A stretch of DNA of 64,000 nucleotides. It comes from Halorarum halobium. Lineage in GTDB: Archaea; Halobacteriota; Halobacteria; Halobacteriales; Haloferacaceae. Location of the stretch: NCBI RefSeq assembly GCF_032116555.1, contig NZ_CP134949.1:558001-622000 (forward strand), written 5' to 3'. A program made the position numbers and the translations under genes. Below, in pieces: positions 7,800 to 57,470 of the stretch; positions within the stretch are counted from its first letter, which is position 1, and each line of letters starts with the position of its first letter. The notes under the pieces were generated by a model. The model ran no database searches. It was not told where the DNA came from and saw only the letters and a list, made by a program, of their open reading frames with translations.

Positions 7800-7898
7800 G
7801 GTCGTGTGGCGGGGCCGGGGGCCGAAAACGATTGCCCCCTCATTCTGGGTGTTCGGCCTGGCCCTCCGGATGATGGGTAGTTTTGCTTCGGGGAACGG

Positions 7899-8244
7899 CT
7901 CGAAAGCCCCCGCGGCTCTCGACTCGGTGCGGCCGCTGCGCTCCTCGCTCCCTTCGGTCGCGCTGTCGTTCGAAAATCGAAGATTTCGTGATGACGAGAG
8001 AGCTCCGCTCTCTCGAACCACGGTGCTTGTCGGTCCGCGCCGTTCACGAGAGCAAAGCTCTCGTGAGCTCACGAGACGCCGTGCGTCTCGTGAACGTCGT
8101 CGAGAGCCACGGCCCCTTTCAGTCCCACCCGCCGCAACCGCCCCGCATCCACGGCCTCTCCAGCCGACGAGGTCCCGACCGGAGGGAGGGACCTCGTCCC
8201 TCGCGCGCGTCTGCTCGCCTTCCGGGCTCGCCGTCACGCGCGCC
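7899..8244 (+). repeat. Palindromic modular repeat, full copy with two inserted double-hairpin cassettes (copy 2)
   Basis: All four scaffold motifs present; cassettes at 7966-8020 and 8043-8094. Confidence 0.9.
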
Positions 8245-8269
8245 ACGGCGTTGACCGACCGAGCCACGT

Positions 8270-8577
8270 GGCGCGCGGCGGCCGCGCTCCGCGCGGCCGC
8301 TCGTGCGAGGCTCACGCGAGCGCAGCGAGGGTGAGTTTCGAGGAGCTCGCTCCGAGAAAAGACGAGCACCGCAGGCGAACGAGCGAAGCAGTGAGCCGAG
8401 GAGCACAGGAGGCTGGGGAGGGTGAGGTTCGGGGCGGTGGTGTGGGTGGGACTGAAAGGGGCCACGGCGCTCGGCGAACCCCGAGGCCTCAAGCACCGCA
8501 GGAGGGAGGCCGCAGGCCGACCGACGAGGAGCGCAGAGCGTCTCGCGGGAGCCGAGCGCCGTGGGGGGGCTTTCGAG
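8270..8577 (-). repeat. Palindromic modular repeat, full copy inverted relative to copy 2 (copy 3)
   Basis: GGCGCGCG...GGCTGGGGAGG...GGTGGGACTGAAAGGGGCC...GGGGCTTTCGAG on the + strand. Confidence 0.9.
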
Positions 8578-8732
8578 GCGGTTGGAACGGTCCAACTCGC
8601 GGCTCGATCGACGTTGACGAGGACGGGGGCGTTCGAGACAGTCGCACCACGGTTGTCGCGAGGAGGACGACACCGACGATCACTGCGTCGAATGACGGGG
8701 TGCTTAACAGCCGCCACGCCCAAGCCCGGCCA

Positions 8733-20990: not shown

Positions 20991-21126
20991 CGGAGTCCGG
21001 CCGACTTGCGTCGGTACCTGCCACGTTCGTGGGTGTTCACTTAACGATTCTCCCGCCGTGTTGCGGTGTGGCATGGGTTCGAGTGTGGGTCTGTGGTGGA
21101 TTTCCTTCCGCCGGGAGTACGGCTAC

Positions 21127-21617
21127 CTCGAAAGCCCCCGCGGCTGTCGGCTCGGGGGACCACGCCTGCGCTCCTCGCGCTCGCTTCGCTCGCGCTGTCG
21201 TTCGAAAATCGAAGATTTTCGTGATGCTGTCGGATTCCGACGGAATCCGACCGCTGACGGGGAACCGTCGGTTTCCCGTACTGACGAAAGACGCCCTGGC
21301 GTCTTTCGAACCACGAGGGTGCGTTCCGAGGAGCTCGCTCCGAGGTAAGACGAGCATCGCAGGCCAGCGAGCGGAGCGACCGAGGCGAGAAGCACAGGAG
21401 GCTGGGGAGGGAGAGGTGCGGTGCGGTGCCGTGCGGTGGGTGGGACTGAAAGGGGCCGCGGCGTTCACGGGCGCTTGCGCCCGTGAATTCGGGAGAGCGT
21501 GCTCTCCCGTAAGTCGACGCGGGCGCGGACCGACAAGCACCGCAGCCGAACGAGCGAAGCGAGTGAGGCGAGGAGCACAGCGGCCGCACCGAGTCGAGCG
21601 CCGCGGGGGCTTTCGAG
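21127..21617. repeat. Palindromic modular repeat, fused inverted pair with nested cassettes (copy 5)
   Basis: Inverted termini CTCGAAAGCCCCCGCGGC / GCCGCGGGGGCTTTCGAG; cassettes at 21198-21313 (containing 21227-21283) and 21464-21512. Confidence 0.9.
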
Positions 21618-21682
21618 GTGTTCGCGTCGCCGAAAACCCTTCCACCGAACTCGAAACTCCGGGAAACCGAAACGAACCGACG

Positions 21683-43704: not shown

Positions 43705-44379
43705 ATGGACGGCATCCACGACGTCGGCGGGATGGACACCTTCCACGACCTGCCCGCCGACGAACCCGACGACGCCAGCCCGTTCCACCACGAGTGGGAG
43801 GGCGTCGTTCAGGCGCTCTACCTCGCCGGCCTGGGGTCGGACACGTTCGAACTCGACCGCTTCCGGTACGAACTGGAGAGCCTCGACCCGGAGTACTACC
43901 TCGGGACGCCGTACTACGAGCGCTGGTTGACTGCGGCCGAATCGCTGTTCGCAGAGGCCGGCGTCGTCGATGCCGACGAACTGCTCGAACGCGCTCGCGC
44001 CATCGAGGCGGGCGAGGCCGAGGCGACCGAACGGACCGACCCCGAGCGCCTCCCGGAACTCCTCGAGGGCGTCCGCGAGGTGTACATGAGCGGGCGCGAC
44101 GGCGGGGAGCCAGCGTTCGAGGTGGGCGACCGGGTTCGGGTTCGAAAGGAGCACCCGAAACGGCACACCCGCTGCCCGCGCTACGTCCGCGGCGCGGAGG
44201 GCGAGGTCGTGGCGTATCGCGGGTCGTACGTCTACCCCGACGCGAACGCACACGGCGAGGAGCGGGCCGAGCCACTGTACAACGTCCGCTTCGGTTCTGG
44301 TGAGTTATGGGGCGAGGCCAACACTGACGGGGACTGGTTGCACGTCGAACTCTGGGAACCGTACCTGGATTCGGTCTGA
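43705..44379 (+). CDS. nthB: Nitrile hydratase beta subunit
   Basis: MDGIHDVGG, FHHEWE, YYERW, F.VGDRVRV...HTRCPRYVRG..G, PDANAHG, LYNVRF...LWG, LWEPYL. Confidence 0.95.
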   Translation: MDGIHDVGGMDTFHDLPADEPDDASPFHHEWEGVVQALYLAGLGSDTFELDRFRYELESLDPEYYLGTPYYERWLTAAESLFAEAGVVDADELLERARAIEAGEAEATERTDPERLPELLEGVREVYMSGRDGGEPAFEVGDRVRVRKEHPKRHTRCPRYVRGAEGEVVAYRGSYVYPDANAHGEERAEPLYNVRFGSGELWGEANTDGDWLHVELWEPYLDSV

Positions 44380-44510
44380 GTTCTCCGTCCGGCGGACTAC
44401 GAAACCTCCCCAACTGTCAGCTCCTGCGTCGGTTCATTCATCGTTTCGACCGCCTCGCCAGACCCCGTGGCGCTATCTATTGGAACTTGTTCGGTTGTCG
44501 TGACCACCGC

Positions 44511-44911
44511 CTCGAAAGCCCCCGTGGCGCTGGACTCGGTGCGGCCGCTGCGCTCCTCAGTCGCTCGCTTCGCTCGCTCCCTGCGGTGCTTGACGGTCCG
44601 CGCCGTTCACGAGAGCAAAGCTCTCGTGAGCTCACGAGACGCCGTGCGTCTCGTGAACGTCGTCCAGCGCCGCGGCCCCTTTCAGTCCCACCCACCGCAC
44701 CCGCACCGCAGCCACGGCCTCCCCAGCCGACGAGGCCCCTCCCTCCGGTCGGGACCTCGCCTTACCTCGGAGCACGCTCCTCGGAACTCACCCTCGTGGT
44801 TCGAAAGACGCCAGGGCGTCTTTCGTCATCACGAAAATCTCCGATTTTCGAACGACTGCGCTCGCGTGAGCCTCGCACGAGCGGCCGCGCTCCGCGCGGC
44901 CGCCGCGCGCC
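44511..44911 (+). repeat. Palindromic modular repeat, full copy between nthB and nthA (copy 6)
   Basis: All scaffold motifs present; cassettes at 44606-44657 and 44797-44855. Confidence 0.9.
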
Positions 44912-45015
44912 AGGCGGCTGATCTCGTATCGACGCCCCGAAGCGTCCACGTTCGCGGCCGTTCGCGGACCACCCCGAGGCCAACGGCTAAGTCCGCGCGA
45001 CCGCCACCGACTCAC

Positions 45016-57245: not shown

Positions 57246-57470
57246 GGCGCGCGGCGGTCGCGCGCCAGCGCGACCGCTCGTGCGAGGCTCACGCGAGCGC
57301 AGTCGTTCGAAAATCGAAGAGTTTCGTGATGCTGTCGGATTCCGACGGAATCCGACCGCTGACGGGAAACCGTCGGTTTCCCGTACTGACGAAAATCCAC
57401 GATTTTCGAACCACGAGCGGGAAGCGCACAGCAGCTGTCGCGGAAGCCGAGCGCCGCGGGGACTTTCGAG
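57246..57470 (-). repeat. Palindromic modular repeat, internally deleted, with doubly nested cassette (copy 9)
   Basis: GGCGCGCG...TCGTGCGAGGCTCACGCGAGCGCAG + cassette 57303-57413 + GGGGACTTTCGAG. Confidence 0.88.

Follow-up and report, generated by a model that had tools for sequence, protein, structure and literature searches.

A two-hairpin cassette inserted at G|C without target duplication in Halobacteria, and a candidate single-stranded route for its movement

Cassettes and host repeats in the window

The window (the whole 64-kb stretch of DNA analysed here) contains a gene-less hairpin repeat beside a phosphoglucose isomerase gene. Further copies of this host repeat lie near 21124-21620 and 44508-44920, and there are roughly 100-150 related loci in the genome. 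The three window repeats are mosaics of tandem G.A-type stems and GNA triloops, and the orthologous regions of congeners hold different sets of host-repeat modules. A nitrile hydratase beta-subunit gene (43705-44379) adjoins a host repeat. Inserted into these repeats and elsewhere in the window are copies of a small two-hairpin cassette. The features are as follows, the bar marking an insertion point.

7896..8580, no strand assigned: host repeat, a gene-less mosaic hairpin repeat; neighbour, the phosphoglucose isomerase gene; no mobile gene upstream
7966..8020, forward: cassette of subtype I (linker TGATGA, end AACCA), 55 nt, in site D, CTG|CGGTGCT; hairpin 1 short by one base
8041..8094, forward: sibling 54-nt two-hairpin module TTCA...TGAA; empty alleles elsewhere; 2-base ambiguity; boundaries read off the sequence
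8311..8360, forward: 50-nt two-hairpin module F, present or absent in the host repeat with no ambiguity; a cassette target; boundaries approximate
8325..8326, forward: empty site F, GCGCAG|CGAGGG, directly 3' of a C-GCA-G triloop motif; 13 empty and 7 filled in the genome
21198..21313, forward: cassette, 116 nt; hybrid with the site D flank on the left and the site F flank on the right
21225..21281, forward: nested 57-nt two-hairpin cassette of another family, in mid-linker; 2-base TG ambiguity
44583..44584, forward: empty site D; 21 empty and 7 filled in the genome
44797..44855, reverse: cassette, 59 nt; filled allele of site F; folding z -4.6
57303..57413, forward: cassette, 111 nt; nested 57-nt cassette at 57330-57386; same hairpin type in both slots

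A preliminary description of this DNA had placed cassettes at 7966-8020, 21198-21313, 44797-44855 and 57303-57413, and all four were found there. The length that it gave, 55-59 bp, is right for two of them; the other two measure 111 and 116 nt and have a 57-nt cassette nested in the linker. The comparison of alleles on which it relied was confirmed. The empty site at 8325/8326 and the filled site at 44797-44855 share 17 identical flanking bases on one side and 10 on the other, with the cassette between G and C and no base repeated. The second empty site, at 44583/44584, and the three hairpin-2 stems were likewise as described. A 13-mer matched six times in the window against 1.2 matches expected, a count reached in 0 of 100 shuffles. 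The second cassette family, which enters the linker centre, can also stack in tandem elsewhere, with three units at locus L069 and two at L316.

Across the 3.68-Mb genome (99.9% complete), a relaxed pattern gave 34 matches, one of them a chance match (about 33 copies), and none in the reversed genome; 32 of the 34 have G as their left and C as their right neighbour. When present/absent modules of the host repeats were sought in an unbiased way, the cassette emerged as the top indel class, with 18 copies in 12 six-base contexts and no ambiguity at the junctions. Both alleles exist at four host sites (empty/filled 13/7, 21/7, 15/6 and 2/2), which account for 22 of the approximately 33 copies. 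Two copies are hybrids, with the left flank from one site and the right flank from another; for the hybrid at 21198..21313 we infer recombination between cassettes. After a small number of insertions, most copies in this genome were probably carried along as the host repeats multiplied. The cassette is absent from two congeners at two orthologous intergenic regions, and site D in another genus carries its own version. At G000:C1:1575062-1575090, site D holds a single-hairpin remnant with intact outer ends. The most frequent repeat of the genome is a different one, a 30-base sequence present 93 times that is probably a CRISPR repeat.

Scaffold, range and host sequences

The cassette has the scaffold G|TCGTT-hairpin-TGATSA-hairpin-RACSA|C, 52-66 nt long. 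The scaffold is constant and the hairpins are free: the two slots hold 38 and 74 different sequences, with loops mostly of 3 bases in either orientation. The element consists of two inverted copies of one unit, giving inverted ends of 8-9 bp. Subtype I combines linker TGATGA with end CCA, and subtype II linker TGATCA with end CGA, so that the variable linker base is complementary to the second-last base in 132 of 134 parsed cassettes; the two others are uncompensated. A search for A or T at this position revealed a third subtype with a T:A combination (20 places in 18 genomes), together with eight uncompensated single copies and three chance matches. This covariation stems from few events, namely three subtypes and one TGG case. 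A variant right unit occurs at L255, L264 and L267, where the insertion point is T|C and the surrounding sequence, from a Haloquadratum assembly, resembles tnpB; there the linker TG still pairs with the terminal CA.

An exact 29-base pattern was found at 76 loci among approximately 185,000 species, all of them in Halobacteria, Haloquadratum assemblies included. When the hairpin sequences were left free, the scaffold matched 267 of 401 Halobacteria genomes, representing 72 of 89 genera, with none in the reversed control; one genus is nearly devoid of it (1 of 22 genomes). Cassettes are also present on 21 plasmid records, all haloarchaeal going by their names. A scan of viral sequences gave no real cassette among the at least 120 loci listed, and the phage records had no match. 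Metagenome contigs diverge at the right end of the cassette into mixed flanks (13-22 contigs per run). Of the 134 parsed cassettes, 130 with full flanks fall into 42 flank clusters, which lie in mosaic repeats, in an IS605 end hairpin (in both orientations), in tnpB 3' regions, in tnpA and tnpB reading frames and in tRNA-associated repeats. At L017 and L084, cassettes lie within hairpin repeats joined to the ends of tRNA genes.

These contexts bear on the central claims of the preliminary description. Independent mobility with precise ends and without duplication extends far beyond the window, as seen in the 42 flank clusters and in exact empty alleles; the tabulation of flanks that had been suggested yields about 40 insertion contexts, none with a target duplication. 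The alternative raised there, a single ancestral site with slippage deletions, is refuted by the many flank clusters in unrelated hosts. We are nearly certain that the cassette is mobile as a unit. The cassette is not specific to the larger repeat that was named there as its target; it enters IS200/IS605 ends and tnpA and tnpB frames as well.

Within IS605 tnpB, the third subtype is present as 18 additional codons (54 nt), and the frame is uninterrupted in most loci. Relatives of about 90% identity provide exact empty alleles without duplication. Between hosts the tnpB cassette is 91-98% identical, and the flanks at these loci are 68-75% identical. A tnpB tree places a filled and an empty allele as sisters (99/96) and requires two to three changes; it is poorly resolved (3 of 18 branches starred), with loss and gain indistinguishable. 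Among 120 TnpB relatives, 17 have inserts of at least 12 residues, 13 of them at the same codon, and 103 have none; the 35-residue insert of two relatives fits a nested cassette at the protein level.

A distinct 51-nt two-hairpin insert keeps the reading frame of IS200/IS605 TnpA, to which it adds 17 residues at the PK|YR motif (L298, L299, L334, L346, L348, L350, L351, L359 and L300). Close relatives have empty alleles, and a sibling insert occupies the same codon of a distant TnpA. Often one and the same element carries the tnpB cassette and the 51-nt insert in tnpA.

Target site, fold and search for the enzyme

The target consensus is CGNNG|C. In 30 loci found without imposing them, the flanking G and the flanking C are each present in 28. 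CG stands at -5/-4 in 24 of 34 subtype I contexts compared with 13% of other nearby GC sites (p 2e-14), and is absent from the other 10; the contexts are partly non-independent, so that this p value and the next are overstated. On the far side, CG occurs in 1 of 34 subtype I contexts but in 7 of 21 of subtype II (p 0.003), which is near-symmetric, with both ends starting TCG. CG stands 5' of whichever end begins TCG. Forms that start with TGG are rare (five pattern matches in 401 genomes, one of them fully compensated). The one-sided CG preference and the rarity of TGG-start forms indicate that the element has a working strand. The target CG could be recognised by base pairing with element positions 2-3. 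Targeting of hairpin loops was not supported, since insertion points lie no nearer to predicted loops than control sites do (48% near loops compared with 54% of other GC sites, p 0.57).

The preliminary description regarded the cassette as Y-shaped. In the predicted linear strand this applies to subtype II only; subtype I forms two loose hairpins, with a mean Y-stem probability of 0.04, and each of the window copies of 55 and 59 nt forms a pair of separate hairpins. We rejected the Y as a conserved structure. Imposing a two-arm fold on the linear strand gave a structure of lower stability than the Y for 114 of 116 cassettes (probability of the two-arm fold 0.01-0.16). In the predicted circular fold, by contrast, the central GATS of the linker pairs across the joined ends in subtypes I and II, with four pairs of mean probability 0.6-0.85. 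Ensemble probabilities are given here since only 56 of 116 cassettes kept the register strictly in the circular minimum-energy fold, subtype I being able to pair either C. The circularised dumbbell is the only predicted fold that would explain the covariation of linker and end in both main subtypes.

With regard to the enzyme, this genome contains no Y1 TnpA, RAYT, IS200 or IS110. It has one tnpB and nine tyrosine-recombinase matches, and a scan of its 3,576 called ORFs for HUH motifs gave five matches, none convincing. Y1 TnpA is present in 14 of 18 cassette-rich genomes compared with 13 of 22 without a scaffold match, some of which hold the third subtype; by these counts Y1 presence is not tied to the cassette. 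The only recurrent gene neighbour is TnpB (15 of 60 loci), and 7 of 30 unbiased loci lie within 500 bp of a TnpA or TnpB match. No autonomous version with the cassette ends was found: the ends of 30 TnpA loci lack them, and they occur only inside two IS bodies. Among the joints listed, which belong to contigs of other organisms, none connects a cassette end to its start, and no circle or excision product was seen. In IS608, a tetranucleotide located 5' of each hairpin acts as a guide that specifies where the cut falls; with this rule applied by eye to the cassette consensus, the left guide gives CG one base off and the right guide misses the end.

The preliminary description had favoured single-stranded HUH chemistry over DDE transposition. 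Its case against DDE agrees with the lack of a target-site duplication at the junctions examined. A single-strand route draws indirect support from target polarity and linker-end pairing. The HUH chemistry itself is a weaker candidate, since this genome has neither a Y1 nor a RAYT gene, the cassette is not tied to Y1 and its right end departs from the IS608 guide rule.

Possible mechanisms and relation to known elements

We propose that the cassette is a non-autonomous 52-66-base element of Halobacteria, made of two inverted hairpin units back to back and inserted exactly at G|C, which probably moves as a closed single-stranded dumbbell circle. The linker is complementary to the last two bases of the element, and in the circle its central GATS would pair across the joined ends and act as a splint. 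Cutting and joining would be performed by a borrowed HUH-type transposase, most likely TnpA of IS200/IS605, and CG at element positions 2-3 may serve as a DNA guide that reads the CG of the target. The targets would be DNA that is often single-stranded or folded, such as IS200/IS605 elements and hairpin repeats. We favour a borrowed TnpA because insertion leaves no duplication, the target motif is one-sided and the sites are biased towards IS200/IS605 DNA, although neutral DNA may simply retain insertions. We assign this explanation as a whole a probability of about one half. Judged separately, movement as a single-stranded circle, as the modelled fold suggests, appears fairly likely, whereas an HUH mover is an even call, and the enzyme is the weakest step of the explanation.

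Among the alternatives, the least unlikely is that the dumbbell is integrated into double-stranded DNA by a single strand exchange of the kind known from integron attC sites, with a tyrosine recombinase of the host or a comparable enzyme as catalyst and the four-way junction resolved by replication. A dumbbell joined to a duplex at one phosphodiester would form a perfect four-way junction, nested cassettes enter the linker centre, opposite the junction, and this genome has nine tyrosine-recombinase matches while HUH enzymes are absent. Against this, no recombinase gene recurs beside cassettes, and the four junctions (G|T, A|C, G|C and A|T) lack the common core base that tyrosine recombinases normally need. 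Somewhat more doubtful is movement as double-stranded DNA in the manner of a MITE, in which a cut-and-paste enzyme would read the 8-9 bp terminal inverted repeats and cut bluntly at G|C. Inverted ends, a palindromic G|C target kept on both sides and the occurrence of both orientations in one IS605 hairpin site agree with it. It does not account for the missing duplication, the one-sided CG preference, the near absence of a TGG/TGG form or the covariation of the internal linker with the end, and no transposase with such ends was found.

It is improbable that a few ancient insertions spread solely as passengers of host repeats and insertion sequences by gene conversion, with empty alleles arising by deletion. 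The concentration of 22 of about 33 genome copies at four sites and the two hybrids, which show recombination between cassettes, fit such a history, and conversion could explain a tnpB cassette 98% identical between flanks of 68-75% identity. However, there are about 40 contexts in unrelated hosts with identical ends, the junctions offer no repeats for slippage, and 103 of 120 TnpB relatives have no insert of at least 12 residues. Passenger spread accounts for amplification, not for origin, and is already largely refuted by the unrelated sites. Least probable, to the point of being a poor candidate, is a function or a route of movement at the RNA level. In its favour, many sites are close to tnpB 3' ends, for which transcription into non-coding RNA is reported in the parts of that study considered here (PMC4615843). 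Yet the loops are mostly three bases long and occur in both orientations, no Rfam family matched the cassette at threshold, and copies in reading frames are in frame and free of stops, as if translated. As read from the sequence, both 3-base loops lie on one strand, which rules out a bulge-helix-bulge splice motif.

Among known elements, the SMR-A of Haloquadratum walsbyi (HqIRS42, HqIRS43 and HqIRS55) come closest; passages of PMC3119063 describe them as approximately 110 bp long with inverted ends, no duplication and an enigmatic mechanism, and as entering IS605-type elements and the near-terminal palindromes of these. Like them, the cassette is haloarchaeal and transposase-free, has inverted ends unrelated to known transposons, makes no duplication and enters an IS605 end hairpin in both orientations, with many other sites in mosaic repeats. 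Beside the approximately 110 bp of SMR-A, the cassette unit measures 52-66 nt and reaches 107-116 nt only when nested. Those passages do not mention a scaffold of hairpins, a consensus for the target, pairing of linker and end, or insertions that keep a reading frame. The cassette may be the basic unit of SMR-A, a likeness drawn by description. A literature search conducted largely outside the subscription journals returned no description of the cassette beyond PMC3119063.

Other comparisons, several drawn from excerpts of the cited papers, are more distant, and identity with PATEs, REPINs or MITEs was rejected on account of the inverted ends, the lack of RAYT or GTAG and the missing target-site duplication, respectively. 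IS200/IS605 elements and their non-autonomous derivatives (PATEs, PMC3119063; SMN1 of Sulfolobus, PMC3718332) resemble the cassette in that they make no duplication, carry a hairpin close to either end, have a short target motif on the 5' side of the left end and are mobilised in trans. PATEs, as described in part, lack the inverted ends of the cassette; its hairpins are unlike IS605 ends, and the base 3' of the cut is also conserved. REP doublets, REPINs and BIMEs with RAYT (PMC3116915, PMC8266576, PMC6006769) share a mobile inverted hairpin doublet, nested mosaics and compensatory stem changes. Unlike these, the cassette has the tag TCGTT/TCGTC rather than GTAG, no RAYT is flanked by copies, the junction dinucleotides on the left and right differ from that of the target, and both ends are exact; the portions of the REPIN/RAYT literature consulted report only IS200-type Y1 in Archaea. 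CGTC-tagged REPs and Rickettsia RPEs (PMC3733652, in part) likewise are short palindromes with CCA tails, no dedicated transposase and in-frame insertion into proteins, but they are bacterial and have another scaffold, and the resemblance is a lead only.

In conclusion, the Haloquadratum paper of 2011 (PMC3119063), in the passages concerned, left open how small repeats without duplication are mobilised, and the cassette provides a minimal, sequence-defined substrate with testable rules, comprising a scaffold, a target motif, a strand polarity and linker-end pairing. A broader reading, which we advance tentatively and hold to be doubtful, is that it is among the smallest mobile elements, an approximately 55-nt single-stranded dumbbell circle whose linker splints the ends, whose first bases guide it to the target and which would depend on an undescribed strand-exchange activity. 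It would then found a superfamily of two-hairpin cassettes that parasitise IS200/IS605, leaving 17-18-residue inserts in TnpA and TnpB, and build haloarchaeal mosaic repeats. The cassette is common in Halobacteria, where it remodels the repeats between genes and gives TnpB and TnpA additional stretches of peptide. Should the circle prove real, an enzyme able to place approximately 55 nt of folded DNA, without a scar, at a target defined by a loose five-base motif would be interesting both for its mechanism and for practical use.
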